A stretch of DNA of 64,000 nt from Taeniopygia guttata (lineage: Eukaryota), in contig NC_133041.1 of NCBI RefSeq assembly GCF_048771995.1, forward strand, positions 4,727,324 to 4,791,323, written 5' to 3'. Below the pieces are notes generated by a model. That model ran no database searches and was not told the DNA's origin. It saw only the letters and a list, made by a program, of their open reading frames with translations. A program made the position numbers and the translations under genes. Below, one piece after another: positions 6,745-50,456 of this stretch. Every line of letters starts with the position of its first letter. The first letter of the stretch is position 1.

Positions 6745-7260
6745 TTTATTAAATAAATGCAAATTAAAACAAGCCCTGCCCCCTGGCAGCCATATTGAAT
6801 ATTTTTTTATAAGGGGAATGCAAATTAAAACAAGCCCCGCCCCCTGGCAGCCATATTGAATATTTTTTTATAAGGGGAATGCAAATTAAAACAAGCCCCG
6901 CCCCCTGGCAGCCATATTGGAACATTTCCTTAGAAGGGAAATGCAAATTAAAATAAGTCCCACCCCCTGGCAGCCATCTTGAAATTTTTCCTGATAAAAC
7001 AAATAGGAATTAAAACAAGCCCTGCCCCCGGCAGCCATATTGAAATATTTCTTTATAAGAGAAATGCAAATTAAAACAAGCCCCACCCCCTGGCAGCCAT
7101 ATTGAAACCTTTCCTGATAAAACAAATAGGAATTAAAACAAGCCCCACCCCCTGGCAGCCATCTTGGAACGTTCCCTCATAAGGTAAAGCTCCTTAAAAA
7201 ACAAGCCCCGCCCCCTGGCAGCCATCTTGGATCCTTTCCTTAAAAGGAAAACCGCTCTAA
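6745..7260. repeat. 60-bp tandem repeat of about 8 copies carrying an octamer (ATGCAAAT), an Sp1 GC box (CCCCGCCCCC) and a YY1-like core (GGCAGCCATATTG/ATCTTGG), inside an SLX1 intron
   Basis: Unit aaacaagccccgccccctggcagccatattgaatatttctttataaggggaatgcaaattaaa. Confidence 0.9.
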
Positions 7261-7305
7261 ACAACAAGCTCCGCCCCCCAGCATTAAGCCCCGCCCCTTT
7301 TTTAC

Positions 7306-7436
7306 CCGGGACAGTTTCCCCCCACGGGCAGCAGCTGCAGCGGCTCCGGGGCCAGGAAGAGCCGGGCCAGGCACGGGGCGTGGGCGGCCATCTTGCACTG
7401 GGGGCGGGGACAGCGCAGAAGGGGCGTGGCCTGTTC
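7306..7436 (-). CDS. SLX1: SLX1 exon, second half of the RING/PHD-type zinc finger; encodes EQATPLLRCPRPQCKMAAHAPCLARLFLAPEPLQLLPVGGNCP(G)
   Basis: Minus acceptor gttttgatgttttcag, donor gtaaaa. Aligns to human SLX1 [40 protein letters not shown]. Confidence 0.85.
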
Positions 7437-7639
7437 CTGAAAACATCAAAACGCTGAAATTCCTGCTTGAACCGCATAAATTTGCATAAATTATGCATTT
7501 CAATGTGATTTAACTAGTTTTTAACCTCACAGCGATTTATTAACAGCACATCAGGCCCCTGCCCACACCCCAAATTTCCATATATTTGCGTTTTCATGCT
7601 CCAAAATTCATCAAATTTGTATTTTGTTCTCTTTAGTGA

Positions 7640-9900: not shown

Positions 9901-9934
9901 AGGTGGGCGGGGCTTAAAAGGGGGCGGGGCTCAC

Positions 9935-10758: not shown

Positions 10759-10789
10759 GGCGCCCACAATGCACCGCGGCGGGCGCCAC

Positions 10790-11230
10790 TTCCGCCCGCG
10801 CTCAACATGGCGGCGGTACGGCCTTGTTATCCCACAATCCATTGCGGGATTGTAGCTCCGCCTCTTTAAAATGGCGGCGGTACGGCCTAGCTATCCCACA
10901 ATCCATTGCGGGATTGTAGCTCCGCCTCTTTAAAATGGCGTCGGTTGTGTGCCTCCTTACCCACAATGCACCGCGGCACCACTTCCGCCCCCGCTCAAAA
11001 TGGCGGCGTTACGGCCTCGTTATCCCACAATCCATTGCGGAATTGTAGTTCCGCCTCTTCAAGATGGCGGCGGTTCAGTGTCTCGTTACCCACAATGCAC
11101 TGCGGCAGAATTGTAGTTTTATCTTTTAAAGATGGCGGCGGTTTGTGCCTCGTTACCCACAATGCACTGCGGCAGAATTGTAGTTTTATCTTTTAAAGAT
11201 GGCGGCGGTTTGTGCCTCGTTACCCACAAT
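10790..11230. promoter_or_regulatory. SLX1/BOLA2 bidirectional promoter core: about 7 tandem units of roughly 60 bp, each carrying a YY1 core (AAGATGGCGGCGG) and a ZNF143/SBS motif (for example AACTACAATTCTGCCGCAGTGCATTGTGGGTAA, read on the minus strand)
   Basis: The array lies between the SLX1 start (about 10758, minus) and the BOLA2 start (11571, plus). The ACTACAATTCCC...TGCATTG SBS consensus is recognisable in every unit, and AAGATGGCGGC is the YY1 consensus. Confidence 0.6.
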
Positions 11231-11540
11231 GCACTGCGGGAGGAAAAAAAAAATTATATTTAATGATAAGCATTATGTAGCATTAATTAGCTTGTACTTG
11301 CGGTGAGTGGTTAATAGGCGTTAATTAGTGATGAATTTATTTTAATTGGTGCTTAATAACCGCCTCGCTTACCCACAATGCCGCGTTTCACTTCCGCCTC
11401 TTTACCCACAAACCTTTGCGCCTTTTACTGTCTTCGCCTCGCTTACCCACAATTCCCTGCCTTACTTCCGCCTCATTACCCACAATGCATCGCTCTCCCC
11501 GCCCGTCCCGCCTCGCTTTCCCATCGAGCCCCGCGCAGCG

Positions 11541-11636: not shown

Positions 11637-11649
11637 GTGCGTCATTAAT

Positions 11650-13690
11650 TCATTAATTAGCGGCTAATTAGCGACCCCCGCCGGGTCATTGGGCTGGGCA
11701 GGGCGGTAATTAGCTGGGAGGGCGGTTAATGAGCGGTTGGGGGGCGTTAATTGGGCGGGGGAGGGGTAATTAGCATTAATTAACCTTAATTAGCGTTAAT
11801 TAAGATGATAATTCGTTTCGGGAGGGGTTAATTTGGGTTAATTAGGATTCTAATTAGGCGGGGGAGGGGTAATTCGAGGTAATTAAGGTGGTAATTAGGT
11901 TTGAGAGGGGTTAATTAGCGTTAACTATGATTCTAATTAGGTTTGGGACTGGTTAATTAGCCTTAATTAGCGTTAATTTGGGTTATTTAGGGTGCCAGTT
12001 AGGCGAGGGAGGGTTTAATTAGCGTTAATTAGGTTTAGGAGGGGTTAATTAGGGTTAATTTAGTTGCTAATTATTTTTTTGAGGGGTTAATTAGGGAGGT
12101 AATTAGCCTTTCAGATATGTTAATTAGTGGTTAAATTATCATTAATCAACGTTAATTAGCTGTTAATAAACGCTAATAACCATTTAGTGGGTGCCAATTA
12201 ACATTTAACAAGTGCTAATTATCTTCTTATTAATTATTTTTATATTTAATTATAAGCATTATGTAGCATTAATTAGCTTATACTTGCAGCGAGCGGTTAA
12301 TGAGCATTAATTAGCGGTAATTAGCGATGAATTTATATTAATTGGTGTTTATTAACAACTAATTAGCCGTTAACGAGTGCTAATCACCCCTTAATTAAAA
12401 TATTGTTCCTCATTAGCATGGGCGGGGGGGCGGGACGTTAATTGTTGCTAATTAATCAGCGCTAATTGCAGGAGGTGCAGGACTCGCCCCAGCTCTGCCC
12501 CGGAAGTTTCCGCGTTCTCGTCGTTTCCGGAACGTTCCGCGGCCTCAAAACGCTCCAGAGGCACCGGTGGGGGCGGGGCCTAATTTGCATTTAATTATAA
12601 AAGGGGTGGGGCCTAATTTGGGTTTAATTATTAAAGGGGCGGGGCTTAATTTGGATTTTAAATATAAAAAGGGCAGGGCTTAATTTGGGTTTAATTAAAA
12701 AGAGGCGGGGCTTTAAATGGGATTTAAATTAGAAAGGGGCGGGGCTTAATTTTGGTTTAATTGGGAAAAGGGGCGTGGCTTAATTTGAGGTTAATTGGGG
12801 AAATGGGTGGGGCTTAAATTGGGTTTAATTGGGAAAAGGGGCGGGGCTTAATTTGGATTTAAATATAAAAGGGGTGGGGCTTAATTTGGGGTTAATTGGA
12901 AAAGGGGCGGGGCTTAAATTGGGTTTTAATATAAAAGGGGTGGGGCTTAAATTTGGGTTAATCGGGAAAGGGGCGGGGCTTAATTTTGGTTTAATTGGGG
13001 AAAAGGGCGGGGCTTAATTTTGGTTTAATTGGGAAAAGGGGCGGGGCTTAATTTGCATTTAATTGGGGAAGGGGCGGGGCTTAATTTGGGTTTAATTTGG
13101 GAAAGGGGCGGGGCTTAAATTGGGTTTAATTGGGGAAGGGGCGGGGCTTAATTTGGGTTTAATTGGGAAAAGGGGCGTGGCTTATTTTGCATTTAATTAG
13201 AAGAGGGGTGGGGCTTGATTTGGGTTTAATTGGGAAAGGGGCGGGGTTTAATTTAGGTTTAAATCAGAAAATTATCAAGGCTTAATTTGGATTTAATTAA
13301 AAAAGGGGTGGGGCTTTATTTGAGTTTAATTGGGGAAAAGGGCGGGGCTTAATTTGGGTTTAATTGGGAAAATGGGCGGGGCTTAATTTGAGTTTAATTG
13401 GGAAAGGGGTGGGGCTTAATTTGGGTTTAATTAGGAAAAGAGGCGGGGCTTAATTTGAGGTTAATTGGGGAAAGGGGCGGGGCTTATTTTGGGTTTAATT
13501 GGGAAAAGGGGCAGGGCTTAATTTGGGTTTTAATTAGGGAAAGGGGCGGGGCTTGAATTGGGTTTAAATGGGGAAATGGGCGGAGCTTAATTTAAATTTA
13601 ATTGGGAAAAGGGGTGGGGCTTAATTTAAATTTAATTGGGAAAAGGGGCGGGGCTTACATTTGTCTTATATGGGAAAAGGGGCGGGGATT
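11650..13690. repeat. BOLA2 intron repeats: AT-rich ttaattag-type units (11650-12460) and a roughly 40-bp repeat of about 28 copies, aaaggggcggggcttaatttgggtttaattggg (12570-13690)
   Basis: Direct periodicity. Confidence 0.85.
12472..12566 (+). CDS. BOLA2: BOLA2 exon 2; encodes EVQDSPQLCPGSFRVLVVSGTFRGLKTLQRH(R)
   Basis: Acceptor ttgcag, donor GTgggg at 12567. Matches human EVEDTTLNRCSCSFRVLVVSAKFEGKPLLQRHR. Confidence 0.85.
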
Positions 13691-13773
13691 GATTAATAAT
13701 TAATTACAGAAGGGGTTAACGAGGGGTTTTAAGGGCTGGTCTGGGGGTTAATTAGCATCTCATGAATATGCAG

Positions 13774-13879
13774 GCTGGTTAACGAGGCGCTGCAGGAGGA
13801 GCTGGGCCGCATCCACGCGCTGGAGCAGCGAACGCTGACGCCCGAGCAGTGGGAGGCGGAGCGTGGCTCATCTGCATAA
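13774..13879 (+). CDS. BOLA2: BOLA2 exon 3; encodes (R)LVNEALQEELGRIHALEQRTLTPEQWEAERGSSA*
   Basis: Acceptor atatgcag. TAA stop at 13877-13879. Matches human LVNACLAEELPHIHAFEQKTLTPDQWARERQK. An AATAAA lies at about 14045. Confidence 0.85.
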
Positions 13880-14135
13880 ATTTGCATACCGCCGCCTTTC
13901 CGCCTCCGCTTTGCCTATGCATGGATTTGCATAAATTAGCCCGGCCTGGCTCTGATTGGTTGAGGCCACGCCCCCTTTTCAGGCCTTAAATGGAGGGGGA
14001 AGGGCGTGGGTGTGGTGCTCATTTGCATAAATTTGCATTAAGGCAATAAACATTCCTCATTTGCATATTGCTGTGGTATTATTGGGTTGGGGCAGCTTTT
14101 GAAGGGGGTTTGGAGGGTGATTTGCATGAATTTGC
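13870..14135. promoter_or_regulatory. Dense cluster of at least 9 octamer motifs (ATTTGCAT/ATGCAAAT), several as tandem pairs ATTTGCATAAATTTGCAT, immediately 3' of the BOLA2 stop codon
   Basis: Strings seen directly include ctgcataaatttgcatacc, ggatttgcataaatt, tcatttgcataaatttgcattaagg, ctcatttgcatattg and gatttgcatgaatttgcataatttt. A smaller cluster is at 7455-7500. Confidence 0.5.
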
Positions 14136-14149
14136 ATAATTTTGGGGGA

Positions 14150-16730
14150 CAGGGAGGGGCTCCCAGTTTGATCCCAGTCCCCACCCCCCAAAATAGAACC
14201 AAAAATGACCCAAAATGCCCCAAAATTGCCCAAAAAAAGACCAAAAATGACCCAAAATGGAACCAAAATGGACCAAAAATGGTCCAAAAATGACTCAAAA
14301 GTGGCACAAAATGGCTCAAAAATGATCCAAAAAAGGTCGAAAAATGACCCAAAAATGAATCAAAAAAATGTCCAAAAATGGCCTAAAATGACCCCAAAAT
14401 GGCCCAAAATTGACTCCCAAAAATATCCAAAAATGAGCCCAAAATGGTCCCAAAAAGGGCCTAAAAATTACTCAAAAAATGTCCAAAAATGAGCCAAAAA
14501 TGCTCAAATATGTCACAAAATTGACTCCAAAAAATGCCCAAAAATGACCGAAAATGTCACAAAAAAGGTCCCAAAAATGGTCAAAAATTATTCAAAAATG
14601 GTCCCAAAAGTGTCCCAAAACTGACTCCTAAAAATATCCAAAAATGGTCCAAAAATGGCAAAAATTAGTCAAAAAAGTCCAAAAATAGCCCAAAATGATA
14701 CAAAAGTGACCTAAAATGACCCAAAAATGGTCCCTAAAATGGCCCAAAATTGACCCTAAAAAATGTCCCAAAAATGGCCCAAAATTGACCCTAAAAAATG
14801 TCCCAAAAAAAGGTCCCAAAACGACCCAAAATTGACCCCAAAGTGACCCAAAAAATTATCCGAAAAAAGTCCCAAAATGACCCAAAATGACCCAGAAATG
14901 ACAAATCCCCTCCCCCACCCCCGCGGGATTCGATGGGGGGGAGGGGCGGCCCCTCCCCCTCCCCTCCCCCACCCCCCGGCCCCGCCTCTGCCCGGGGTGG
15001 GGGAGGGGCCGATTTTGGGTCATTTTGGGACTTTTTCGGCCATTTTGGGGCCATTTCGGGACCTTTTTTTGGGTCATTTTTGGTCTTTTTTTGGGGCAAT
15101 TTTGGGGTTTTTTTTAATTATTTTTTTGGGGGGTGGGGAAAGGGATTTTTGGGGTGGGGGAGGGGCCGATTTTGGGGTGGCTTTGGGACATTTTGGGTCT
15201 TTTTTGGGGCCATTTTTGGGCCACTTTTGAGTCCATTTTGGGACCTTTTTTTGGGTCATTTTTGGGTCTTTTTTTTGGGGTCAATTTTGGGGCAATTTTT
15301 GGGCATTTTGGGTTTGGTTTGTTTTTTGGGGGGTGGGGGAGGGGCAATTCGGGGTCATTTTTTTGAGGGTGGGGGAGGGGCCGATTTTGGGGTCACTTTG
15401 GGACATTTTGGGTCTTTTTTGGGGTCAATTTTGGTCATTTTTTTGTCATTTGGGGGGTGGGGGAGGGGATTCGGGGGTGGGGGAGGGGCGGGGACAGGAC
15501 TTTGAGAGTGGGGGAGGGGCCTGAAGGGTGGGGGAGGGGATTTGGGGTGGGGGAGGGGCCGATTTTTGGGGTCACTTTGGGACTTTTTGGTCATTTTTGT
15601 CATTTCTGGGTCATTTTGGGTCATTTTTGAGCCATTTTTGGGTCATTTTGGGACATTTTTTGGAGGCAATTTTGGGACATTTTTGGGACCGTTTTTGGCT
15701 CATTTTTCAGCCATTTTTGGGTCATTTTTGGGACATTTTTTGTACATTTTTTGGTCATTTTTGTGTCATTTTTCGAGTCAATTTTGGGTCATTTTTGGAC
15801 ATTTTTAGAACCATTTTGGGTCATTTTTGGAGGGGATTTGAGGGTGGGGGAGGGGAAATTTGACGCCATTTTTGAGGGTGGGGGAGGGGCCGATTTTGGG
15901 GTGACTTTGGGACACTTTGAGTCTTTTTGGGACCTTTTTTTGGGTCACTTTTGGGTCTTTTTTTGGGGGTCAATTTTGGGGCAATTTTTGGGCATTTTGG
16001 GGCTTTTTTTTTGTTTCGTTCGAGGTGGGGGAGGGGATTTGGGGGTGGGGGAGGGGCTGGGAGAGGACTTTGAGAGTGGGGGAGGGGCTTGAAGGGTGGG
16101 GGAGGGGAAACTCGGGGTGGGGGAGGGGCAATTCGGGGTAATCATTGAGGGTGGGGGAGGGGCCGATTTTGGGGCCATTTTGGGTCTCTTTTGGGGTCAA
16201 TTTTGCGGAATTTTGGTCTTTTTTTAAAATTCTCATTTGGGGGTGGGGGAGGGGAAGTTTGGGGTGGGGGAGGGGAAATTTGGGGTGGATTTAAGGGTGG
16301 GGGAGGGGAACTGAGGCGGTTTTGAGGGTGGGGGAGGGGATTTTCGGGGTGGGGGAGGGGCAATTTGGGGTGGGGGAGGGGATTTGAGGGTGGGGGGAGG
16401 GGAAATTTGGGGTGGATTTAAGGGTGGGGGAGGGGAACTGGGGCGGTTTTGAGGGTGGGGGAGGGGATTTGGGGGTGGGGGAGGGGAAATTTGGGGTGGG
16501 GGAGGGGAACTGAGGCGGTTTTGAGGGTGGGGGAGGGGAAATTTGGGGTGGGGGAGGGGATTTAAGGGTGGGGGAGGGGAACTGAGGCGGTTTTGAGGGT
16601 GGGGGAGGGGATTTGGGGTGGGGGAGGGGTTGTGACGATGGGGGCGGGGCTCAGCGGTGGGGGAGGGGCTCCGGGAGGGGATTTAGGCGCCAAACGGGGG
16701 TGGGGGAGGGGAATTTTGGGGTGGGGGAGG
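14150..16730. repeat. Intergenic arrays upstream of SLC5A2: a roughly 20-bp gacccaaaatg-type repeat in mixed orientation (14150-15100), then about 1.6 kb of G-quadruplex-type repeats gggtgggggaggggatttg (15100-16730)
   Basis: Runs of GGG(N1-3)GGGGGAGGGG on the + strand continue without a break up to the SLC5A2 ATG. Confidence 0.85.
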
Positions 16731-16732
16731 GG

Positions 16733-16813
16733 ATGGCGGCGCCCGGAGCGGGGCCGTGGGACCTGGGGGTGGTCGCGGGGTATTTCCTGCTCGTCATGGC
16801 CGTGGGGATCTGG
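16733..16813 (+). CDS. SLC5A2: SLC5A2 (SGLT2) exon 1; encodes MAAPGAGPWDLGVVAGYFLLVMAVGIW
   Basis: ATG at 16733, donor gtaagg. Matches the start of SGLT2 TM1 (ADILVIAAYFLLVIGVGLW). The exon is embedded in G4-type repeats. Confidence 0.8.
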
Positions 16814-16839
16814 GTAAGGACAAAAAAATAACCCCAAAA

Positions 16840-19800
16840 TCCCAGAAATTCACCCCAAAAAAATCAACCAAAAAAAATCCCAAATTCCCAGAAATTTACC
16901 CCGAAAAAATCAACCAAAAAAAAAAATCCCAAATTCCCAGAAATTCACCCCAAAAAATCAAACAAAAAAATTCCCCAAAATTCCAAAAATTCACCCCGAA
17001 AAAATCCACCCTAAAAATCCCAAAATCCCAGAAATTCACCCCAAAAAAATCAACCAAAAAATTCCCCCAAAATCCCAGAAATTCACCCCAAAAAAATCCA
17101 CCCTAAAAATCCCAAAAACCTGAAATTTCTGCCCAAAAAATTCACCCTGAAAATCTCAAAATCCTGAAATATCACCCCGAAAAAATCAACCAAAAAATTC
17201 CCCAAAATCCCAGAAATTCACCCCAAAAAAATCAACCAAAAAATTCCCCAAAATTCAAAAAATTCACCCCCAAAAAATCAACCAAAAAAATCCCAAATTC
17301 CCAGAAATTCACCCCAAAAAAATCAACTAAAAAATTCCCCCAAAATCCCAGAAATTCATCCCGAAAAAATCAAACAAAAAATTCCCCAAAATCCCAGAAA
17401 TTCACCCCAAAAAATCAACCAAAAAAAAAAATCCCAAAATCCCGGAAATTCACCCCAAAAAAATCAACCAAAAAAATAACCCCAAAATCCCAGAAATTAA
17501 CCCCGAAAATATCCACCCTAAAAATCCCAAAAACCTGAAATTTCTGCCCAAAAAATCCACCCTGAAAATCTCAAAATCCCAAAAATTTGCCCCCAAAAAT
17601 CAACCAAAAGATTCCCCAAAATCCCAGAAATTCACCCAAAAAAAATCAACCCTGAAAATCCCAAATTCCCAGAAAATCACCCCTAAAAAAAAATCCACCC
17701 TAAAAATCCCAAAATCCTGAAAATTCACCCCAAAAAAATCCCCAAATTCCAAAAATTCACCCCAAAAAAATCAACCAAAAAAAAAATCCCAAAATCCTGG
17801 AAATTCACCCCAAAAAAATCAACCAAAAAATTCCCCAAATCCTGAAAATTCACCCAAAAAAATTCCCCAAATTCCAGGAAATCACCCCGAAAAAATCCAC
17901 CCTAAGAATCCCAAAAACCTGAAATTTCTGCCCAAAAAATTCACCCTGAAAATCTAAAAATTCCAAAAATTCACCCCCAAAAATCAACCACAAAATTCCC
18001 CAAAATCCCAGAAATTCACCCCAAAAAAATCAACCAAAAAATTCCCCAAATCCTGAAAATTCACCCCGAAAAAATCAAACAAAAAATTCCCCCAAATCCC
18101 AGAAATTCACCCCAAAAAAATCAACTAAAACAAAAGATCCCAAAATCCCAGAAATTCACCCCAAAAAAATCAACCAAAAAAACCCCAAATTCCCAGAAAA
18201 TCACCCCGAAAAAATTCCACCCTAAAAATCCCAAAAACCTGAAATTTCAGCCCAAAAATTTCAGCCTGAAAATCTCAAAATCCCAGAAATTCACCCTGAA
18301 AAAAATCAACTTTAAAAGTCCCAAAATGCCGGAAAATCAACCCAAAAATATCCATTTTTAAAATCCCCAAATCCTGAAAATTCACCCAGAAAAAAAATCC
18401 ACCCTAAAAATCACAAACTCTCAGAAATTCACCCTAAAAAATCAACTTCAGAAATCCCAAAATCCTGAAAATTCACCCCAAAAAAAATCCACCCTAAAAA
18501 CCCCCAAAATCTCAGAAATTCACCCCAAAATTCCGGAAATTCACCCTCAAAAAAATCCACCCTAAAAATCCCCAAATCCTGGAAAATCAACACAAAAAAT
18601 GTTGCCCGTACTGGTTTGTACTGGTTTGTACTGGTTTATACTGGTTTATACTGGTTTTTACTGGTTTATACTGGTTCATACTGGTTCATACTGGTTTTAC
18701 GGGTATATATTGGTTTTTACTGGTTTATACTGGTTTTTACTGGTTTTTACTGGTTTTTCCGGGTCTGTACTAGTTCATACTGGTTTATACTGGTTTGTAT
18801 CAATCCATACTGGTTCATACTGGTTTATACTGGTTTATACTGGTCCGTACTGGTCCATACTGGTTTATACTGGTTTCTATGGATTTCTACGGCGGTTTTT
18901 TGGGTCCATACTGGTTTATACTGGTTTATACTGGTTTGTATCAATCCCTACTGGTCTGTAGTGGTCCATACTGGTTTATACTGGTTCATACTGGTTTATA
19001 CTGGTTTCTATCAATCCATACTGGTCCTTACTGGTCCTTACTGGTTTTTACTGGTCCCAGTCCCTGCGCCGGCGCGGTGGGCGGAGCCTCTCCGGGTATT
19101 TCCTGGCCGGACGCAGCATGACCTGGGCCCCGGTGAGTTTTTATACTGGTTTGTACTGGTTTGTACTGGTTTGGACTGGTTTGGACTGGTTTGGACTGGT
19201 TTGGACTGGTTTTATACTGGTTTGGACTGGTTTGTACTGGTTTGTACTGGGAGGGACTCAGAGGGAACTGGTTTATACTGGGAATGGAGGGATCACCTTG
19301 GGGTCACTCATTGATCACTCAGGGGTCACTCAGGGTCACTCAGGGTCACTCAGGGTCACTCATTGGTCACTCATTGGTCACTCAGGGTCACTCAGGGGTC
19401 ACTCAGGGGTCACTCAGGGGTCACTCATTGGTCACTCATTGGTCACTCAGGGTCACTCAGGGGTCACTCATTGGTCACTCAGGGGTCACTCAAGGGTCAC
19501 TCATTGGTCACTCAGGGGTCACTCAGGGGTCACTCAGGGGTCACTCAGGGGTCACTCAGCGGTCACTCAGGGGTCACTCAGGGGTCACTCAGGGGTCACT
19601 CATTGGTCACTCAGGGGTCACTCAGGGTCACTCAGGGGTCACTCAGGGGTCACTCAGGGGTCACTCATTGGTCACTCAGGGGTCCCTCAGGGGTCACTCA
19701 GGGGTCACTCAGGGGTCACTCAGGGTCACTCAGGGTCACTCATTGGTCACTCAGGGGTCACTCATTGGTCACTCATTGAGGGTCACTCAGGGTCACTCAG

Positions 19801-20278: not shown

Positions 20279-20282
20279 GTGA

Positions 20283-20470
20283 GTCGCGATATATGTCGCG
20301 ATATGCCGCGATATGTCGCGATATCTGCCGCGATATGTCGCGATATGCCGCGATAGGGCGCGATATGTCGCGGTACCGCGACATATCGCGCCCTATCGCG
20401 GCATATCGCGACATATCGCGGCCCCCCCGCTGCTTCTATCGCGAGATTTGCCGTCCTTAAACACGCCCTG
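20283..20470. repeat. Near-perfect palindrome of about 90 bp centred on GGTACC (about 20373-20378) in SLC5A2 intron 3. It is built from CpG-rich 9/10-bp units TGTCGCGATA, which equal the ZBED1/hDREF consensus TGTCG(C/T)GA(C/T)A
   Basis: The left arm gcgatatgccgcgatagggcgcgatatgtcgc is the exact reverse complement of the right arm gcgacatatcgcgccctatcgcggcatatcgc. More TATCGCGATA units follow at 20480-20590. Confidence 0.85.
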
Positions 20471-20660: not shown

Positions 20661-21339
20661 GTGAGACTGGTTTATACTGGTTTATACTGGGAGGGACTGG
20701 GAGGGACTGGGAGGGAACTGGGAGGGGACTGGGTTATACTGGTTTATACTGGGAGGGAGCTGGGAGGGAACTGGGTTATACTGGGAGGGACTGGGAGGGA
20801 ACTGGGTTATACTGGGAGGGACTGGGAGGGACTGGGAGGGGACTGGGAATGAACTGGGTTATACTGGTTTATACTGGGAGGGAGCTGGGAGGGAACTGGG
20901 TTATACTGGGAGGGACTGGGAGGGAACTGGTTTATACTGGGACGGACTGGGATGGACTGGGAATGGACTGGGTTATACTCGTTTATACTGGGAGGGACTG
21001 GGAGGGAACTGGGAGGGGACTGGGACAAACTGGGACAAACTGGGAGGGACTGGGAGGGGACTGGGAACGGAGTGGTTTATACTGGTTTATACTGGGAGGG
21101 ACTGGGAGGGAGCTGGGAGGGACTGGGACAAACTGGGACAAACTGGGAGGGACTGGGAATGGACTGGGTTATACTGGTTTTTACTGGGAGGGACTGGGAG
21201 GGGACTGGGACAAACTGGGAGGGACTGGGAATGAACTGAGTTATACTGGTTTATACTGGGAGGGACTGGGCGTGGCTTAGTGAGGGGTGGGCATGTCTCG
21301 GTCCCGGGTGGGCGTGGTCTGAGCGAGGGGCGTGGCCAG

Positions 21340-21599
21340 GTGAGCACCATGCCCGAGTACCTGGGGCGGGTGGGCGTGGTCTGATGGGGTGGGCGTGGTC
21401 TGAGCCCGGTGGGCGTGGCCAGGTGAGCACCATGCCCGAGTACCTGGGGCGGGTGGGCGTGGTCTGAGCCCGGTGGGCGTGGCCAGGTGAGCACCATGCC
21501 CGAGTACCTGGGGCGGGTGGGCGTGGCCCAGGGAAGGGTGGGCGTGGTCTGACCGGTGGGCGTGGCCAGGTGAGCACCATGCCCGAGTACCTGGGGCGG
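21340..21599 (+). other. Four decoy copies of the SLC5A2 exon 5 acceptor plus its first 30 nt (ggccag|GTGAGCACCATGCCCGAGTACCTGGGGCGG|gtgggc) at 21340-21369, 21423-21452, 21487-21516 and 21570-21599, inside a repeat of 60-90 bp immediately upstream of the real exon 5 (21671)
   Basis: Each copy has an AG acceptor, a 30-nt in-frame segment ([10 protein letters not shown]) and a downstream GT. Only the last copy continues into the real exon sequence (cgcttcggggg...). Confidence 0.85.
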
Positions 21600-21670
21600 G
21601 TGGGCGTGTCCTGGGGCGGTGGGCGTGGTCTGAGCGGGGTGGGCGTGGCCTGACCGAGGGGCGTGGCCAG

Positions 21671-21775: not shown

Positions 21776-23335
21776 GTACTGGGATATACTGGGAGGGACT
21801 GGGAGGGACTGGGAGGGACTGGGAGGGACTGGGAGGGACTGGGAACAAACTGGGTTATACTGGGAGGGACTGGGAATGGAGTGGGAGGGACTGGGAGGGA
21901 CTGGGAGGGACTGGGAATGAACTGGGAGGGACTGGGGGGGGACTGGGTTATACTGGGAGGGACTGGGAGGGACTGGGAATGAACTGGGTTATACTGGGAG
22001 GGACTGGGTTATACTGGGAGGGGACTTGGATAAACTGGGAGGGAATGGGATGTACTGGGAGGGCACTGGGAGGGACTGGGAGGGACTGGGTTATACTGGG
22101 AATGAACTGGGAGGGACTGGGAACAAACTGGGTTATACTGGGGGGGACTGGGAGGGACTGGGAGGGGATTGGAATGAACTGGGTTATACTGGGAGTGACT
22201 GGGAGGGACTGGGTTATACTGGGTTATACTGGGAGGGACTGGGAGGGAACTGGGAGGGACTGGGAGGGAACTGGGTTATACTGGGAGGGACTGGGAGGGA
22301 CTGGGAGGGAACTGGGAGTGGGGAGGAAACTCCAAATTCCACAGGGACCCCCCAGTTCCCTCCCAGTATAACCCAGTTTGTTCCCAGTCCCTCCCAGTTC
22401 CCTCCCAGTCCCTCCCAGTTTGTCCCAGTCAATTCCCAGTTCCCTCCCAGTCTGTTCCAGTGCCTCCCAGTCCATTCCCAGTTTGTCCCAGTTAATCCCA
22501 GTCCCTCTCAGTATAACCCAGTTTATTCCCAGTTCCCTCCCAGTCCCTCCCAGTCTGTCCCAGCATATCCCAGTCCCTCCCAGTTCCCTCCCAATCCATT
22601 CCCAGTTAATCCCAGTTAATCCCACTTCCCTCCCAGTCTCTCCCAGTTTATCCCAGTCCCTCCCAGTTCACTCCCATTTCCCTCCCAGTATAACCCAGTT
22701 TGTTCCCAGTCCTTCCCAGTCCCCTGCCAGCCCCTCCAGTACAAACCAGTATAACCCAGTTTGTTCCCAGTCCCTCCCAGTCTCTCCCAGTTTATCCCAG
22801 TCCCTCCCAGTTCACTCCCATTTCCCTCCCAGTATAACCCAGTTTATTCCCAGTTCCCTCCCAGTCCCTCCCAGTCCCTCCCAGTCCCTCTCAGTCACTC
22901 CCAGTACAAACCAGTCCATTCCCAGTTTATCCCAGTTCCCTCCCAGTCCTTCCCAGTTGCCTCCCAGTACAAACCAGTATAACCTAGTTTGTTCCCACTC
23001 CCTCCCAGTTCATCCCAGTCCCTCCCAGTTTATCCCAGTCAATTCCCCGTTCCCTCCCAGTCTGTTCCAGTGCCTCCCAGTCCATTCCCAGTTAATCCCA
23101 GTCTATCCCAGTCCCTCCCAGTCCCTCCCAGTCCATTCCCAGTATAACCCAGTTTATCCCAGTCTCTCCCAGTCCATTCCCAGTTCCCTCCCAGTCCCTC
23201 CCAGTTCCCTCCCAGTCCCTCCCAGTCCATTCCCAGTTTATCCCAGTCCCTCCCAGTCCATTCCCAGTTTATCCCAGTCTATCCCAGTGCCCCACAGCCC
23301 CTCCCAGTCCGTCCCAGTACAGACCAGTTTGGCAG

Positions 23336-25014: not shown

Positions 25015-25095
25015 GCGGGCTGACGGCGCTGATGTTCGCGGACCTGCTGCAGACCCTCATCATCCTCGTGGGCGCCTCCGTGCTGGCCGGCTACG
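25015..25095 (+). CDS. SLC5A2: SLC5A2 exon 7; encodes (G)GLTALMFADLLQTLIILVGASVLAGY
   Basis: Acceptor ggccag, donor GTgggg at 25096. Matches SGLT2 [26 protein letters not shown]. Confidence 0.88.
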
Positions 25096-32991: not shown

Positions 32992-33868
32992 GTGGGCACG
33001 GCTGGGGGCACCTGGGGGCACCTGGGGGCACCTGGGATACACCTGGGCACACCTGGGATACACCTGGGCATGGTTAAACACACGTGGGCACACCTGAAAT
33101 ACACCTGAGATACACCTGGGGGCACCTGGGGGTACCTAAAATACACCTGGGCACACCTGAGATACACCTGAGATACACCTGGGCACAGCTGGGGGCACCT
33201 AAAATACACCTGGGCATGGCTGGGGGCACCTGGGATACACCTGGGCACACCTGGACACACCTGGGCACACCTGGGCATGGTTAAACACACCTGAGATACA
33301 CCTGGGCACACCTGGGATAGACCTGGGCACACCTGGGGCACACCTGGGCACACCTAAAACACACCTGGGCACACCTGGGCACAGCTGGGCACACCTGAGA
33401 CACACCTGGGATAGACCTGGGCACACCTGGGGGATATTTTGGGCACACCTGGGCGCACCTGGGCATGGCCAGGGGCACCTGGGGGCATGCCTGGGCACAC
33501 CTAAAATACACCTGGGCACACCTGGGCACGCCTGGGGCACACCTGGGCACGGCTGAGTGCACCTGGGGGTACATGGAGCACACCTGGGGCACACCTGGGC
33601 ACACCTGGGGCACACCTGGGCACACCTGGGCACACCTGGGGCACACCTGGGCACACCTGGGCACACCTGGGCATGGTTTAACACACCTGGGGCACACCTG
33701 GGCACACCTGGGATAGACCTGGGCATGGTTTAACACACCTGGGGCACACCTGGGACACACCTGGGCACACCTGGGGGATATTTTGGGCACACCTGGGCAC
33801 ACCTGGGGGATATTTTGGGCACACCTGGGCGCACCTGGGCACACAGGTGACCCCTCCCCTGCCCGCAG

Positions 33869-33940
33869 GCTGTGGGTGGTGGCCATGGTGGGGCTGAGCC
33901 TGGCCTGGCTGCCGGTGCTGCGGGCGGCGCGGGGGGCGCA
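33869..33940 (+). other. Truncated upstream duplicate of SLC5A2 exon 12 (acceptor plus the first about 72 nt: [23 protein letters not shown]) that runs straight into the acacctgggc satellite
   Basis: Identical to 34848-34919, including the cccctgcccgcag acceptor. No in-frame donor follows. Confidence 0.8.
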
Positions 33941-38110: not shown

Positions 38111-39308
38111 GCCGCGCTGCTCTTCCTCCTCACCGCCGCCATCGTCATCGCCGTGTCCTGCTGCCACCCGCCCATCCCCGAGGTCCACGTGAGTCTCGGG
38201 AAGTTTTTTGGGGAAAAAACGGTGAAAAAATGGTGAAAAACGGTGAAAAAATGGCCAAAAAATGGCCAAAAATGCGCTCGAAACGGGCTCAAAATGGGCA
38301 CAAAAGTGGGACAAAAAAAGCCCAAAATGGGACAAAATGGGCCCAAAAATGGCCCAAAAGGAGCCCAGAATGGGTCAAACTGAAATGTGAGAGCTTGGGA
38401 ATTTTTGGGAATTTTTGGGAATTTTTTTGGGAAAAACCAGAAAAAATGACAAAAAAAGGTGAAAAAATGACGAAAAAATGGCGAAAAATGAGCCCAAAAT
38501 GGCCCCAAAATCAGCCCAAAATGAGCCCAAAATGACCCAAAAATGGGACAAAATGGCCACAAAATCAGCCCAAAATCAGCCCAAAATGACCCCAAAATGA
38601 CCTAAAATGGCCCCAGATTGACTAAAAATGCCCCAAAATAACCAAAATGGCCCAAAATTGCCCCAAATGGTCGCAGCGGAGCCGCGCTGCTCTTCCTCCT
38701 CACCGCCGCCATCGTCATCGCCGTGTCCTGCTGCCACCCGCCCATCCCCGAGGTCCACGTGAGTCTCGGGAAGTTTTTTTGGGGAAAAACGGCGAAAAAA
38801 TGGTGAAAAACGGTGAAAAAACGGTGAAAAAAGGGCGAAAAAACGGCCAAAAATGCGCTCGAAATGAGCTCAAAATGGCCCCAAAATGGGACAAAATGGG
38901 CCCAAAAATGGCCCAAAAGGAGCCCAGAATGGGTCAAACTGAAATGAGAGATTTTGGGACTTTTTGGGAATTTTTGGGGGAAAAAACCAGAAAAAATGAC
39001 AAAAAAAGGTGAAAAAATGACGAAAAAATGGCAAAAAATGAGCCCAAAATGGCCCCAAAATCAGCCCAAAATGAGCCCCAAAATCAGCCCAAAATGAGCC
39101 AAAAATGGGACAAAATGGCCACAAATCAGCCCAAAATGACCCAAAAATGACCTAAAATGGCCCCAGAATGACTAAAAATGCCCCAAAATAACCAAAATGG
39201 CCCAAAATTGCCCCAAATGGTCGCAGCGGAGCCGCGCTGCTCTTCCTCCTCACCGCCGCCATCGTCATCGCCGTGTCCTGCTGCCACCCGCCCATCCCCG
39301 AGGTCCAC
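38111..39308 (+). other. Three copies of the SLC5A2 exon 13 3' end plus donor (GCCGCGCTGCTCTTCCTCCTCACCGCCGCCATCGTCATCGCCGTGTCCTGCTGCCACCCGCCCATCCCCGAGGTCCAC|gtgagtctcggg) at 38111-38188, 38681-38758 and 39231-39308
   Basis: Each copy terminates one tandem unit of about 560 bp. The real exon ends at 37366 with the identical sequence. Confidence 0.85.
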
Positions 39309-40695
39309 GTGAGTCTCGGGAAGTTTTTTTGGGGAAAAACGGCGAAAAAATGGTGAAAAACGGTGAAAAAACGGTGAAAAAAGGGCGAAAAAACGGCCAA
39401 AAATGCGCTCGAAATGAGCTCAAAATGGCCCCAAAATGGGACAAAATGACCCAAAAATGGGACAAAATGGCCCCAAAAATGGCACAAAAGGAGCCCAAAA
39501 TGGGTCAAACTTAAATGTGAGATTTTGGGACTTTTTGGGAATTTTTTTGGGATTTTTTTCCCAATTTTTGGGTGATTTTTGTGAATTTGAGGTGGATTTT
39601 GCCATTTTTGGGCAATTTTGGGTGGATTTTGATAAATTTTGGTTTAATTTTTGCCAAATTTTGGTTGGATTTCTGTTATTTTGGGGTGGATTTTTGACAT
39701 TTTTGGGGTGGATTTTGCCCAATTTTGGGTGGATTTGGCAGAATTTTGGGCAGATTTTGCCTTTTTTGGGTTGATATTTGTGGATTTTGGGTCAATTTTA
39801 GTGAATTTTGGGTGGATTTTGCCATTTTTGGGGTCAATTTTGCCATTTTTGGCTGGATTTTTGTGAATTTTGGATTTTGGCAAATTTTGGCTCAATTTTT
39901 CCAATTTTTGAGTGTTTTTTGTGAATTTTGGGTGTTTTTTTCTAAATTTTGAGTGTTTTTTGTTAATTTGGGGTCTATTTTTCCAACTTTTGAGTGATTT
40001 TTGTGAATTTTGGGTTGATTTTTCTGAATTTTGGGTGGATTTTGCAGAATTTCGGGTGGATTTTGCCAGTTTTGGGTCGATTTTTGTGAATTTTGGGTGG
40101 ATTTCGCCATTTTTTGGGTAATTTCGCCATTTTTGGGCTCGATTTTTGTGCATTTTGGGTCGATTTTGCCATTTTTGGTTGATTTTTGTGAATTTTGGGC
40201 GGATTTCCCCATTTTTGGGGTCGCTTTTGCCATTTTTGGGGTCGATTTTTGTGAATTTTGGTTGATTTTTGTGAATTTTGGGCGGATTTTGCCATTTTTG
40301 GGGTCGATTTTGCCATTTTTGGGGTCGATTTTGCCATTTCTGGGTCGATTTTTGTGCATTTTGGGTGGATTTTGCCATTTTTGGGGTCCATTTTGCCATT
40401 TTTTGGGTCGATTTTGCCATTTTTTGGTTGATTATTGTGAATTTTGGGTCGATTTTGCCGAATTTTGGGGTCGATATTGCCATTTTTGGGGTCAATTTTG
40501 TCATTTTTTGGTTGATTTTTGTGAATTTTGGGCGGATTTCGCCATTTTTGGGGTCGATTTTGCCATTTTTTGGTTGATTTTTGTGAATTTTGGGCGGATT
40601 TCGCCATTTTCGGGGTCGATTTTTCCATTTTCGGGGTCGATTTTGCCGAATTTTGGGTGGATTTTGGTGAATTTTGGGCGATTTCCCGATTCCAG

Positions 40696-45549: not shown

Positions 45550-48312
45550 GTACTGGTTATACTGGTTTATACTGGTTTGTACTGGGAGGGACTGGGAGGG
45601 ACTGGGTTTTAGTCATTTTACCTTTTTTTTGCATTTTTTACTGGTTTTGACTGGTTTTAACTGGTTTAAAACTAGTTTATAACTGGTTTTATACTGGTTT
45701 ATACTGGTTTTATACTGGTTTATACTGGTTTATACTGGTTTATACTGGTTTATACCAGTTAGGACTGGTTAGGATTGGTTTATAGTGGTTTTATTGGTTT
45801 TTAATATTTTTTACCTTTTTTTGTGGTTTTTACTGGTTTTGACTGGTTTAAAACTGGTTTATAACTGGGTTTATACTGGTTTTATACTGGTTTATACTGG
45901 TTTGTACTGGTTTATAGTGGTTTATACTGGTTAGGACTGGTTAGGACCAGTTAGGATTGGTTTTTACTGGTTTTACTGGTTTATAATATTTTTTACCATT
46001 TTTTGTGGTTTTTACTGGTTTTTATTGGTTTTGACTGGTTTAAAACTGGTTTATACCTGGTTTTATACTGGTTTATACTGGTTTATACTGGTTTATACTG
46101 GGAGGGACTGGGTTGTACCGGTTTTACTGGGTTTTAGTCATTCTTACCTTTTTTTTTGCATTTTTTACTGTTTTTTACTGGTTTTTATTGGTTTTGACTG
46201 GTTTAAAACTGGTTTAAAACTGGTTTTATACTGGTTTATACTGGTTTGTACTGGTTTATACTGGTTTATACCGGTTAGGACCGGTTACGATTGGTTTATA
46301 CCGGTTTTACTGGGTTTTAGTAATTTTTTTTGCATTTTTTACTGGTTTTTACGGTTTTGACTGGTTTTAACTGGTTTAAAACTGGTTTATACTGGGTTTA
46401 TACTGGTCTGTACTGGTTTATACCAGTTAGGACTGGTTAGGATTGGTTTATACTGGTTTTACTGGTTTTTAATATTTTTTATCTTTTTTTTTGTGGTTTT
46501 TACTGGTTTTGACTGGTTTAAAACTGGTTTATAACTGGGTTTATACTGGTTTATACTGGTTTGTAGTGGTTTTACTGGGTTTTAGTAATCTTTACTTTTT
46601 TTTTCATTTTTTACTGGTTTTTACTGGTTTTGACTGGTTTAAAACTGCTTTATAACTGGTTTTATACTGGTTTTTACTGGTTTATACTGGTTTATACTGG
46701 TTTATACTGGTTAGGACTGGGAGGGACTGGTTTGTACTGGTTTTACTGGTTTTTAGTCATTTTTGCCTTTTTTTTTTCATTTTTTACTAGTTTTTACTGG
46801 TTTTTACTGGTTTTGACTGGTTTAAAACTGGTTTATAACTGGGTTTATACTGGTTTGTACTGGTTTATACTGGTTTATACTGGGAAGGAGCCCCGCCCCC
46901 GCCGCCATCTTGGATTGACCTTTTTGAAACTTTTCCCTCCAAATTTTGGCCTTTTTTCCCCAAAATTTCGGGATTTTCCCCCAAATTTGGAGCTCCCAGT
47001 CCCAAACTGGGAATTTCCTAATTCCAAACTGGGAATGTCCCAGTTCCAAACTGGGAATGTCCCAATTCCAAACTGGGAAGATCCCAATTAGCCTCAGTCC
47101 TTTGCCGCCATCTTGGATTGACCTTTTTGATCTTTTCCTCCAAATTTTGACTTTTTTTTCCCCCAAATTTTGGTTTTTTGTCCCAAATTTTGAGGTTCCA
47201 GTTCCAAACCGGGAATTTCCCAATTCCAAACTGGGAATGTCCCAATTCCGAACTGGGAAGGTCCCAATTAGCACCAGTCCTCTGCCGCCATCTTGGATTG
47301 ACCTTTTTGACCTCTTTTCCCTCCAAATTTTGACCTTTTTTCCCCAAAATTTTGGTTTTTCGTCCCAAATTTTGAGGTTCCGGTTCCAAACTGGGAATGC
47401 CCCAGTCCCAAACTGGGAATTTCCCAGTTCCTAACTGGGAAGGTCCCAATTAGCCTCAGTCCTCCGCCGCCATCTTGGATTGACCTTTTTGACCTCTTCC
47501 CTCCAAATTTTGACCTTTTTTTTCCCAAAATTTGGGGTTTTTTCCCCAAAATTTTACCCCCACGCCCCACCCCAGTCCCTCCCAGTTTGGAACCGGTCTG
47601 ATCCCAGTCTGGAACTGGGAATGTTCCAGTTGGGCCCACCCTTCCACCATCTTGGATTGACCTTTTCGAGCTCTTCCCTCCAAATTTCAACATTTTTCCT
47701 CCGTAATTTCCCATTTTTTCACCAAAATTTTGACTTTTTGCCCCCAAATTTTTCCCCCACGCCCCACCCCAGTCCCTCCCAGTTTGAACCGGTCTGATCC
47801 CAGTTTGGAACTGGGAATGTTCCATTTGGCCCCGCCCCTTCCGCCATCTTGGATTGACCTTTTCGAGCTTTTCCCTCCAAATTTCGACTTTTTTTTCCCC
47901 AAAATTTCAGGATTTTCCCCCAAATTCAGAGCTCCCAGTCCCAAACTGGGAATTACCCAGTCCCAAACTGGGAATTTCCCAGTTCCAAACTGGGAAGGTC
48001 CCAGTTAGCCCCAGTCCTCCGCCGCCATCTTGGATTGACATTTTTGAGCTCGTCCCTCCAAATTTCAACCTTTTTTTCCCAAAATTTGGGGCTTTTCCCC
48101 CAAAATTTTTCCCCCACGCCCCACCCCAGTCCCTCCCACTTTGGAACCAGTCTGATCCCAGTTTGGAACTGGGAATGTCCCAGTTGACCCCACCCCTGCC
48201 GCCATCTTGGATTGACCTTTTCGAGTTTTCCCTCCAAACTTCAACATTTTTCCTCCGTAATTTCCCATTTTTTTACCAAAATTTCGCCTTTTTCCCCCAA
48301 ATTCTTCCCCAG

Positions 48313-48466
48313 GCTCGCGGCTGGGCGCCATGCTGGACATGCTGACGGACCGGCTGAGCTCCATGTGCCTCCTGCTGAACCTGGCGCTGCTCTACCCGCG
48401 TTGGGCGCCGCTCTTCCAGCTCAGCTCCGCCCTGGACCTGGCCAGCCATTGGCTGCACACGCACTG
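48313..48466 (+). CDS. CDIPT: CDIPT exon 3; encodes (G)SRLGAMLDMLTDRLSSMCLLLNLALLYPRWAPLFQLSSALDLASHWLHTH(C)
   Basis: Acceptor cttccccag, donor GTgggc at 48467. Matches human TRFGAMLDMLTDRCSTMCLLVNLALLYPGATLFFQISMSLDVASHWLHLHS. Confidence 0.88.
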
Positions 48467-50456
48467 GTGGGCGGGGCTTGGCGGGGCGGGGCCGGGGCAT
48501 GGTCGCCTGGGGGAGAAATGGGGAAAAAAACGGGAAAAAACGGGAAAATTAGGCAAAAAATGGGGGAAATATGGGGGGAAATGGGTGTTTGGGGGCGTGG
48601 TTTGAGTGGGAGGGGGCGTGGCTTATGTGGGTGGGGCTGGGCGTGGTCACCGGGGGGAGAAATGGGGAAAAAATGGGAAAAAACGGGAAAATTGGGGCAA
48701 AAAATGGGGGAAATATGGGAAAAAATGGGACTTTGGGGGCGTGGTTTGAGTGGGAGGGGGCGTGGCTTAGGTGGGTGGGGCTGGGCGTGGTCGCCGGGGG
48801 GAGAAATGGGGAAAAAACGGGAAAATTGAGGCCAAAAATTGAGGAAATATGAGGGGAAATGAAGTTTTGGGGGCGTGGTTAGAGTGGGAGGGGGCGGGGC
48901 TTGGCGGGGCGGGGCCGGGGCGTGGTCACCGGGGGGAGAAATGGGGAAAAAACGGGAAAAAAAGGGAAAAAAATGGGAAAATTGGGGCAAAAAATGGGGG
49001 AAATATGGAGGGAAATGAGGGTTTGGGGGCGTGGTTTGAGTGGGAGGGGGCGTGGCTTAGGTGGGTGGGGCTGGGCGTGGTCGCCGGGGGGAGAAATGGG
49101 GAAAAAACGGGAAAAAACGGGAAAATTGAGGCCAAAAATTGAGGAAATATGAGGGGAAATGGAGTTTTGGGGGCGTGGTTAGAGTGGGAGGGGGCGGGGC
49201 TTGGCGGGGCGGGGCCGGGGCGTGGTCACCGGGGGGAGAAATGGGGAAAAAACGGGAAAATTGGGGCAAAAATGGAGGAAATATGGGGGGAAATTGCGGT
49301 TTGGGGGCGTGGTTTGACTGTGGCAATGTGGGCGTGGCCACTGTGATATATATGCTAATGAGGGGCCTCACTCCATATATGATGATGTGGGCGTGGTCTT
49401 TGATCCATATATGCTAATTAGGGGTCCTCACTCCAAATATGGCTATGTGGGCGTGCCCTCTGATGAATATATGCTAATGAGGGTTACTCATTGCATATAT
49501 GGCAATGTGGGCGTGGTCTTTGTGCCATATATGCTAATGAGGGTCACTCTACATATGGCAATGTGGGCGTGGCCCTTGCGCTATATATGCTAATTAGATG
49601 TATGCCATATAGGGTGATGTGGGCGTGGTCTTTGTACCATATATGCTAATGAGGGGTCGTTACTCTATATATGGTGATGTGGGTGTGGTCACTGATCAAT
49701 ATATGCTAATGAGGGGTCCTCACTGCATATATGGCCATGTGGGCGTGGCCTTTGGTCTATATATGCTAATGAGGTTTACTCACTGCATATATGGCAATGT
49801 GGGCGTGGTCTTTGCCCCAAACATGCTAATGAGGGTTACTCACTGCATATATGGTGACGTGGGCGTGGTCTTTGTGCCATATATGCTAATGAGGGTCACT
49901 CAGTGCATATATGTTGATGTGGGCGTGGTCTTTGCACCATATATGCTAATGAGGGCTCCTCATTCCATATATGGCAATGTGGGCGTGGTCTTTGCACCAT
50001 ATATGCTAATGAGCATATATTTAGGCATGGCCACTGATCAATATATGCTAATGAGGGTTACTCCATATATGGCGATGTGGGTGTGGTCTTTGCTCCATAT
50101 ATGCTAATTAGGGGCCCTCACGCTATATATGGTGATGTGGGCGTGGTCTTTGCACCATATATGCTAATGAGGGACCCTCACTCCATATATGGCAATGTGG
50201 GCGTGGTCTTTGTCCCAAATATGCTAATGAGGGTCACTGCATGTATGGAAATGTGGGCGTGGTCTTTGCTTTATATATGCTAATGAGGGCTCCTCACTCC
50301 ATTTATGATGATAATATATGCTAATGAGGGCTCCTCACTCCATATATGGTGATGTGGGCGTAGTCTTTGCGCCATATATGCAAATGAGGGTTTCTATATA
50401 TGTCGATGTGGGCGTGTCCCGCCTGACCACGCCCCCTCTGGCCCCTCCCCCTTTAG

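Follow-up and report, generated by a model that had tools for sequence, protein, structure and literature searches.

Introduction

Introns of avian dot chromosomes have been reported to consist of more than 70% tandem repeats, with unit lengths that are multiples of 10–11 bp (10.1101/2025.10.17.683159), and the term "sequence stuttering" has been given to locally arising minisatellite arrays (PMC12954441). A-phased repeats and G-quadruplex (G4) motifs are likewise described as common in the dot-chromosome euchromatin of zebra finch and chicken (PMC12954441; 10.1101/2025.10.14.682431; 10.1101/2025.10.17.683159). The stretch examined in this study, referred to as the window, comprises 64,000 nucleotides of Taeniopygia guttata (NC_133041.1, positions 4,727,324–4,791,323), in which a first-pass annotation had noted octamer (POU) motifs, consensus ATGCAAAT/ATTTGCAT, within three satellite families and in a dense cluster outside them. 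The positions and octamer motifs that it gave were correct. Overall, the motifs had been accurately sighted in a known repeat landscape, and three of the four groups appear to be ordinary amplified passengers; what is probably new is a bird-specific conserved element with a candidate regulatory function, here called cluster B, which begins at the stop codon of BOLA2.

All three octamer-bearing "satellites" (arrays 1–3, Table 1) match the description of avian dot-chromosome intronic minisatellites. The window is gene-dense euchromatin with 82% tandem repeat, its units measure 10, 11, 21, 41 and ~60 bp, its arrays lie within single introns, partial exon copies occur in introns, and the sense strand is the G-rich strand. 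Local imperfect tandem arrays were found inside SLX1, SLC5A2 and CDIPT introns by Tandem Repeats Finder (TRF) and exon maps, and arrays are seeded from adjacent unique sequence, including exon fragments; arrays 2 and 3, for example, repeat the word GGGCGTGGCC of the adjoining 3' splice region. Locally amplified minisatellite of the "sequence stuttering" kind makes up nearly all of the intronic and intergenic DNA of the window. The published accounts are not known to describe factor-like words within the units or cross-species positional conservation of the families, both of which are seen here.

Octamer and CCAAT promoter modules also occur in histone H2B and immunoglobulin genes. Cluster B resembles these modules in having CTCATTTGCATA-type octamers, a Y-box (CTGATTGGTT) and a GC box within ~150 bp, and differs from them in that no histone or immunoglobulin gene lies downstream, its octamers are multiplied and phased at 10 bp, and it begins at the stop codon of another gene. 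A promoter of the H2B or immunoglobulin type was considered and set aside, as there is no gene body and no clear TATA-plus-start site, and the likeness is kept as a resemblance only.

Cluster B and its conservation

Cluster B contains ATTTGCAT(A/G)A units at 13870 (ATCTGCAT, overlapping the stop), 13880, 13925, 14021, 14031, 14059, 14120 and 14130. They share one orientation, most of them are paired at a spacing of 10 bp, and ATTTGCATAA is the unit. The description of a dense, non-satellite cluster holds; the count of at least nine octamers is reduced to seven exact copies of the consensus in 268 bp and one copy with a single mismatch. Past the likely polyadenylation signal of BOLA2 and its GU-rich site there is one octamer pair, which thus falls outside the predicted BOLA2 mRNA. 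A role as the promoter of SLC5A2 was rejected, exon 1 of that gene (16733–16815) being 2.6 kb downstream, behind G-rich arrays. The nearby CTCATGAATATGCAG at 13759–13773, which looks like an immunoglobulin heavy-chain heptamer/octamer pair, is the 3' splice site of BOLA2 intron 2.

Orthologous loci were found via proteins from homologue searches in Vidua (L001), Zonotrichia (L002, L003 and L005), Haemorhous (L004), Camarhynchus (L006), Aphelocoma (L007), Larus (L008), Numida (L009) and the turtle Carettochelys (L010); the Numida contig ends in an intron, and the Camarhynchus CDIPT locus is without the relevant exon. In the window, Vidua and Zonotrichia the first ATTTGCAT stands one base past the BOLA2 stop, and in Aphelocoma it also overlaps the last codons. 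These four passerines have in common octamer offsets of +1, ~+45, ~+142/152, ~+178 and ~+241/251 from the stop, together with the Y-box GATTGGT at +71 to +75. When the four are aligned, the Y-box and GC-box columns are invariant or nearly so, and octamer positions are 91–94% identical to the window vs. 55–74% at other non-coding positions (Fisher p 2.5e-3 to 5.8e-10), a difference to be read with the knowledge that aligners anchor on repeated motifs and so inflate octamer identity.

The number of exact octamers varies, with three in Vidua, seven in the window, seven in Aphelocoma and 13 in Zonotrichia, where a ~90-bp module has itself been multiplied. In the gull Larus, ATCTGCATAAATTTGCATAAATTTACAT directly follows the TGA stop and amounts to a triple 10-bp unit, after which many CCCGCCCCTCATTA(G/A)CATAA units continue up to GDPD3; in birds other than the zebra finch, the spot after BOLA2 lies 0.1–1.6 kb upstream of that gene. 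The turtle BOLA2 3' region is plain and short, with AATAAA at +46 and no octamers. Cluster B is a bird-specific conserved non-coding element, found in four passerines and partly in the gull and absent in the turtle. The first-pass annotation had named absence from orthologous loci as grounds for abandoning its octamer reading; cluster B clearly comes through this comparison, and it appears reasonable to regard its units as POU-type sites.

Judged from motif content and conservation, cluster B is most likely a POU/NF-Y/Sp-type regulatory module. We infer that NF-Y, Sp/KLF and a POU factor, for example Oct-1/POU2F1, may bind it jointly as DNA, and that, located at the BOLA2 3' end, it would be a compact intergenic module with a regulatory role.

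An unlikely alternative is that cluster B acts at the level of RNA and 3'-end processing, with the ATTTGCATAA units supplying CAUAAA variants of the polyadenylation signal and U-rich flanks for BOLA2, or protein-binding sites in its 3' untranslated region, and with an incidental likeness to the POU octamer. This would agree with the first unit overlapping or directly following the stop in all birds examined, and with every unit being in the BOLA2 sense orientation. The window, Vidua and Zonotrichia have AATAAA at +162 to +166, and the turtle, with no octamers, has an ordinary signal; over 900 nt, Aphelocoma and Larus have neither AATAAA nor ATTAAA, and CATAAA, inside the units, is the one hexamer there that resembles a signal. 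It is, however, the whole 8-mer that is conserved and not CATAAA alone, and conserved single units followed by TAT or TAC have no CATAAA. Furthermore, the pair downstream of the AATAAA/GU-rich site is conserved in three species, and the Y-box and GC box conserved alongside the octamers are motifs of DNA for which no role in RNA is known; because of these two observations a module acting at the DNA level is favored.

It is also unlikely that 10-bp A-phased stuttering gave rise to all of the octamers, even those of cluster B, as neutral by-products, in which case ATTTGCATAA would be one more 10–11-bp dot-chromosome unit, kept alike by duplication and gene conversion. Units in multiples of 10–11 bp and A-phased repeats are the norm for introns, as far as the published descriptions go (10.1101/2025.10.14.682431; 10.1101/2025.10.17.683159). 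The varying copy number of cluster B and the multiplied module in Zonotrichia fit this explanation, as does the persistence of other array cores from gull to finch, and the flanks of three octamer pairs in the window are weakly similar, suggesting old duplications. Against this, the positions in cluster B are orthologous, with fixed offsets from the stop, the Y-box and AATAAA, and do not behave as a shifting array, and conservation is significantly higher at the octamers than between them. In addition, the identical 8-mer has been kept in five lineages while the same 10-bp unit in an SLX1 intron has decayed in other species; this decay is an internal control against the view that the unit simply persists.

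This SLX1 mini-cluster precedes the 3' splice site of the exon at ~7436–7306 by ~40 nt. The first-pass annotation had placed at least three octamers at 7455–7500, of which one is exact (7480–7487), within three degenerate 10-bp units. The position of the mini-cluster is conserved, with imperfect octamers in Vidua (ATGCAAAA, ATGCGAAT) and Zonotrichia (ATGCAAGT).

Table 1. Positions of the octamer-bearing and associated features in the window.
Feature	Positions	Strand	Description	Basis
Array 1	6707–7260	-	Nine 61–63-bp units in the last intron of minus-strand SLX1	TRF and unit list
SLX1 mini-cluster	7470–7500	-	Three degenerate 10-bp units, ATGCAAATTT-like on the SLX1 sense strand	
ZNF143 binding site (SBS)-like tandem units	10760–11480	+	TACCCACAATGCACTGCG with AAGATGGCGGCGG; the "ZNF143" element of the first-pass annotation	
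BOLA2 last exon	13774–13879	+	RLVNEALQEELGRIHALEQRTLTPEQWEAERGSSA, then stop	tblastn with zebra finch BOLA2; homologue search
Cluster B	13870–14137	+	Non-coding element beginning at the BOLA2 stop (TAA 13877–13879)	
Y-box and GC box in cluster B	13952–13975	+	CTGATTGGTT (inverted CCAAT), then GGCCACGCCCCC	
Likely BOLA2 polyadenylation signal	14045–14050	+	AATAAA, then CA and a GU-rich stretch	
Array 2	24768–25014	+	~41-bp units (TGGGCGTGGCTTAACTGGGTGTGG...ATTTGCATAA) at the 3' end of an SLC5A2 intron	
Array 3	49321–50456	+	19 units of ~60 bp (GTGGGCGTGG..CATATATGCTAATGAGGG..CATATATGGCAAT) at the 3' end of a CDIPT intron	

Octamers in the tandem arrays

The exact octamer ATGCAAAT occurs 21 times in the window when both strands are counted, compared with 3.0 ± 1.9 in dinucleotide shuffles, and to this extent the enrichment over a shuffled background expected by the first-pass annotation is present. 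Dinucleotide-shuffle and Markov nulls are, however, inadequate for a sequence that is 82% repeat. Since shuffles ignore amplification, three other tests were used in their place, namely ranks among the 8-mers of the window, array-collapsed counts and composition-matched permutations. In the window's own 8-mer spectrum the octamer ranked 533rd by count among 12,880 words. With each array collapsed to one consensus unit (27 kb), 12 matches in six independent pieces remained vs. 1.5 expected, seven of these 12 lying in the single cluster at 13880–14137. Ranked by independent pieces among their composition-matched permutations, ATGCAAAT was 9th of 840 and ATGCTAAT 4th of 592. The octamer excess comes mostly from amplification, and a real but modest residual enrichment remains. 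Several isolated octamers differ by one or two steps from A/T-rich words that are common in the repeats, as with ATTTGCAT in two of ~33 units whose norm is ATTTGGGT.

Array 1 is flanked by SLX1 exons at ~7436–7306 and ~6668–6551, which together give one full-length Pfam SLX1_C match across the junction. Its unit carries a GC box, GCCATnTTG, the palindrome TTCCTTATAAGGAA and a variable slot, and this slot reads ATGCAAAT in five of the nine units; the GC box and the location had been correctly described, but not the octamer as a once-per-unit feature. Vidua and Zonotrichia carry this 62–63-bp family in the orthologous SLX1 intron and have retained its GC box, GCCATCTTG and TTCCTTATAAGGAA palindrome. 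The slot there reads ATGCACCC, AAACACCT or ATGCTCCC, so that the array is conserved in these species and the octamer is absent. Two stretches of this region that look like promoters, 6380–6700 and 7380–7440 (YY1, cAMP response element-like and GC boxes, AAGATGGCC), are SLX1 coding exons.

Array 2 continues into the acceptor site of the SLC5A2 exon at ~25015–25095. Its octamer-bearing word ATTTGCATAATGGGCGTGGC is present, though in three of ~5 units (24768–24975) and not in each. Zonotrichia and Haemorhous have octamer-free GGGCGTGGCCTAA arrays at this end of the intron; here too the arrays are conserved and the octamers are not.

Array 3 abuts the CDIPT exon that starts at ~50457, and its units (49321–50420) contain 15 copies of ATGCTAATGAG, three of ATGCTAATTAG and one of ATGCAAATGAG. 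The unit is an internal duplication of a ~30-bp unit, the slot in the other half reading ATGGCAAT. The array is found in the same intron in Zonotrichia, where 10 of 20 units carry ATGCTAAT and the rest ATGATAAT, ATGGCAAT or ATGTTAGT, so that conservation of the octamer at the orthologous locus is borne out by half. The arrangement had been likened to the overlapping octamer/TAATGARAT (OCTA+) element of herpes simplex virus immediate-early promoters, and ATGCTAATGAG does equal the first 11 bases of ATGCTAATGARAT. The units, however, read ATGCTAATGAGGG and end in GAGGG rather than GARAT, and TAATGARAT has no match on either strand of the whole window. Neither here nor in Zonotrichia (GTTGG) is there the GARAT end that the VP16 complex requires, the GAG extension is not shared (TAATGTT in Zonotrichia), and array 3 is a minisatellite of a host intron.

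The three families had been called unrelated, yet arrays 2 and 3 have the common core ATGTGGGCGTGGCC. Array 1 resembles the inverted array at 4895–5541 when the consensus units are compared by eye. A literature search on octamer-bearing minisatellites found nothing relevant. A further octamer array was seen in the GDPD3 introns of Zonotrichia, where an unrelated AAAAATGCRAATTTTGGGG array holds 47 copies of ATGCAAAT and shows that such words are readily amplified. In this array (L002 21780–22660; L003 1–3930), ATGCAAAT alternates with ATGCGAAT, the two forming a CpG-transition pair.

The octamers of arrays 1–3 would therefore be passengers and not selected POU sites, because the arrays are old and their octamers are not, or only partly. 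The long-lived core of the arrays appears to be the GC/GT box (GGGGCGGGG or GGGCGTGGCC), with the octamer in a fast-changing spacer, and the octamer may have arisen by a few substitutions in one unit and then spread along the array by amplification and homogenization. More widely, intron-specific families and GC/GT-box cores hold their position for tens of millions of years, and spacer words, octamers among them, turn over.

That the intronic arrays are instead functional multi-copy platforms for Sp/KLF and POU factors, serving as intronic enhancers or factor sinks for their host genes, is considered highly unlikely. Three observations speak for such platforms: passerines share the GC/GT-box core and the placement of each array beside the 3' splice site; within array 3, variation is lowest in the blocks ATATGCTAATGAGGG and GTGGGCGTGG; and the octamer is in the top 1% of composition-matched words by independent loci. 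The octamer, however, is absent from two of the orthologous arrays and partly conserved in the third. Little variation within an array is what recent homogenization should produce, and a conserved core could equally reflect G-run splicing signals or a mutational mechanism.

Interpretation

Taken as a whole, it is on balance probable that the octamers of the arrays are amplified passengers and that cluster B is a separate, bird-specific DNA module of the POU/NF-Y/Sp type. Several points weigh against this. Besides the effect of the aligners on octamer identity, the cores TTAATTAG (BOLA2 introns) and TTAGCAACAAGCCCCGCCCC (SLX1) are also shared between gull and passerines, so that long persistence of a stutter unit is not by itself proof of selection. 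GDPD3, the obvious downstream target in other birds, was not found in the window. The state of Aphelocoma and Larus, with CATAAA in the units and no AATAAA, favors the RNA-level explanation. Lastly, given the top 1% rank of the octamer by independent loci, "pure passenger" may be too strong a term for the arrays.

Tandem amplification accounts for most of the factor-motif "enrichment" in avian dot-chromosome sequence, and such enrichment should be judged after collapsing arrays and against orthologous loci. Cluster B offers a testable candidate for the regulation or insulation of neighboring genes on the most compact vertebrate chromosomes. A bolder and decidedly unlikely extension is that birds, at least Neoaves, evolved an intergenic control element at the BOLA2 stop, made of helically phased Oct-1 sites in the same orientation with NF-Y and Sp boxes and having a dual role, and that the minisatellites are not inert either. 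If this were true, the element would serve both BOLA2 3'-end formation or a transcriptional roadblock and, as an upstream enhancer, the next gene on gene-dense dot chromosomes, and GC/GT-box cores with A/T-rich slots (octamer, TAATTA, TTTAAAT) would make minisatellites into factor-binding arrays that shape the expression or splicing of their host genes.

ZNF143-like units and small RNA genes

Promoters of protein-coding genes with ZNF143 SBS are a known kind. The ZNF143-like units of the window lie between the SLX1 ATG (~10758, minus strand) and the BOLA2 ATG (11571), and this array is the bidirectional protein-coding promoter of SLX1 and BOLA2. It is like the known promoters in having TACCCACAATGCACTGCG units with an ACTACA-like extension, and differs from them in that the site is tandemly multiplied (~8 cores).

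The first-pass annotation combined octamer and ZNF143 motifs into an enhancer of the small nuclear RNA (snRNA) type, and under such a reading they would form the distal sequence element (DSE) of an RNA polymerase II snRNA gene or a polymerase III type 3 gene, driving a small RNA gene that had gone undetected. Some likeness to the DSE of snRNA, 7SK and U6 genes does exist, in the perfect ATTTGCAT octamer and in ZNF143-like units within ~100 bp of it in two other passerines, Vidua and Zonotrichia, where the SBS-like array begins 55–100 bp downstream of the last cluster B octamer; this likeness is superficial. SBS cores occur in the window only at 10763–11479, with the nearest octamers at 7480 and 13880, 2.4–3.3 kb away, and belong to a protein-coding promoter, whilst the SBS arrays of the other species precede the annotated start of GDPD3. 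There are also many octamers rather than one, the three octamer arrays are intronic, and no snRNA gene lies downstream, where a gene body would be expected at ~200–250 bp. Rfam returned no snRNA, 7SK or other small RNA gene in the window at gathering scores or at E ≤ 0.5 and no match at gathering score in four orthologous loci (L001, L002, L007 and L008), and no transfer RNAs were found in the window. The annotation's own remark that no snRNA gene body was detectable is confirmed by these searches, and the snRNA-type reading, already close to refuted, is extremely improbable.

The ZNF143-like promoter element has itself been "stuttered" and retained. Its units stand in tandem at the SLX1/BOLA2 promoter in four passerines (outside the window, L001 9207–9921, L002 9139–9793 and L007 3096–3955), and an inverted array of the ZNF143-like core precedes GDPD3 in Vidua (L001 12246–12495) and Zonotrichia (L002 13373–14265). 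Sub-threshold microRNA-like hairpins in the Rfam output (25–45 bits, E ≤ 0.5) were located at repeat junctions (22250–22400, 20340–20410 and 2150–2220); these are suspected to be strand switches of tandem arrays, which make long inverted repeats.

Gene content and other observations

The window is gene dense, with exons of SGF29, SLX1, BOLA2, SLC5A2, CDIPT and MYLPF placed by tblastn. The first placement used human proteins, serving as probes only, and database searches then confirmed the genes. In homologue searches, spliced BOLA2 was 98% identical to the Taeniopygia guttata protein, and crude exon joins of CDIPT and SLC5A2 were 97 and 92% identical to zebra finch proteins; the exons of CDIPT and SLC5A2 map back to the window at 94–100% (tblastn). 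Pfam matches comprise GIY-YIG and SLX1_C in SLX1, Tudor in SGF29, and EF-hands. According to the TRF mask, the unique remainder beside the 82% of tandem repeat is mostly exons. The genes are orthologous to genes of human 16p11.2, and gene content, repeat landscape and species together point to euchromatin of a zebra finch dot microchromosome.

Gene order differs among the birds, with GDPD3 after BOLA2 in Vidua, Zonotrichia and Larus and SLC5A2 after BOLA2 in the window (13880–19060), and the gene downstream of SLC5A2 varies among three passerines (CDIPT, RNF40 or RUSF1). These differences around BOLA2 and SLC5A2 could be due to rearrangement, loss or assembly differences. Between cluster B and SLC5A2, ~2.5 kb of G-rich arrays at 14187–16730 (GGGGTGGGGGAGGGG; CCCAAAAATGA flipping to ATTTTTGGGTC) directly precede the SLC5A2 start codon at 16733 and form a G4-prone promoter region.

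Partial copies of SLC5A2 exons occur in the following or preceding introns, at 27619–27690, 28125–28196, 33867–33930, 38141–38191, 38711–38761 and 39261–39311, and an SLC5A2 exon fragment (DLPWPGL..) has been multiplied in other species as well, with three extra copies in Zonotrichia and five in Haemorhous.

The GT/GC box GGGCGTGGC (CCACGCCC) is far more pervasive than the octamer, with 53 exact copies in the window, and is the commonest complex word among the window repeats; CCACGCCC is found in 28 independent array or unique pieces. Examples lie at 4904–5553, 21268–21659, 24768–25003, 48614–49048 and 49330–50410. Arrays of this box continue right up to the 3' splice site, and no polypyrimidine tract is obvious there, as in TGTGGGCGTGGCCAG/G at 25000–25014, and GT/GC-core arrays that abut splice sites are seen alike in zebra finch, Zonotrichia and Haemorhous.

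Intron-specific families keep their core word from gull to finch. A G-run with TTAATTAG is found in the BOLA2 introns of the window (11640–12460) and of Larus (L008 4177–6311), and the TTAGCAACAAGCCCCGCCCC core in the last SLX1 intron is common to gull (L008 1984–2082) and finch, which suggests that the identity of these arrays outlasts what the term "instability" would imply.

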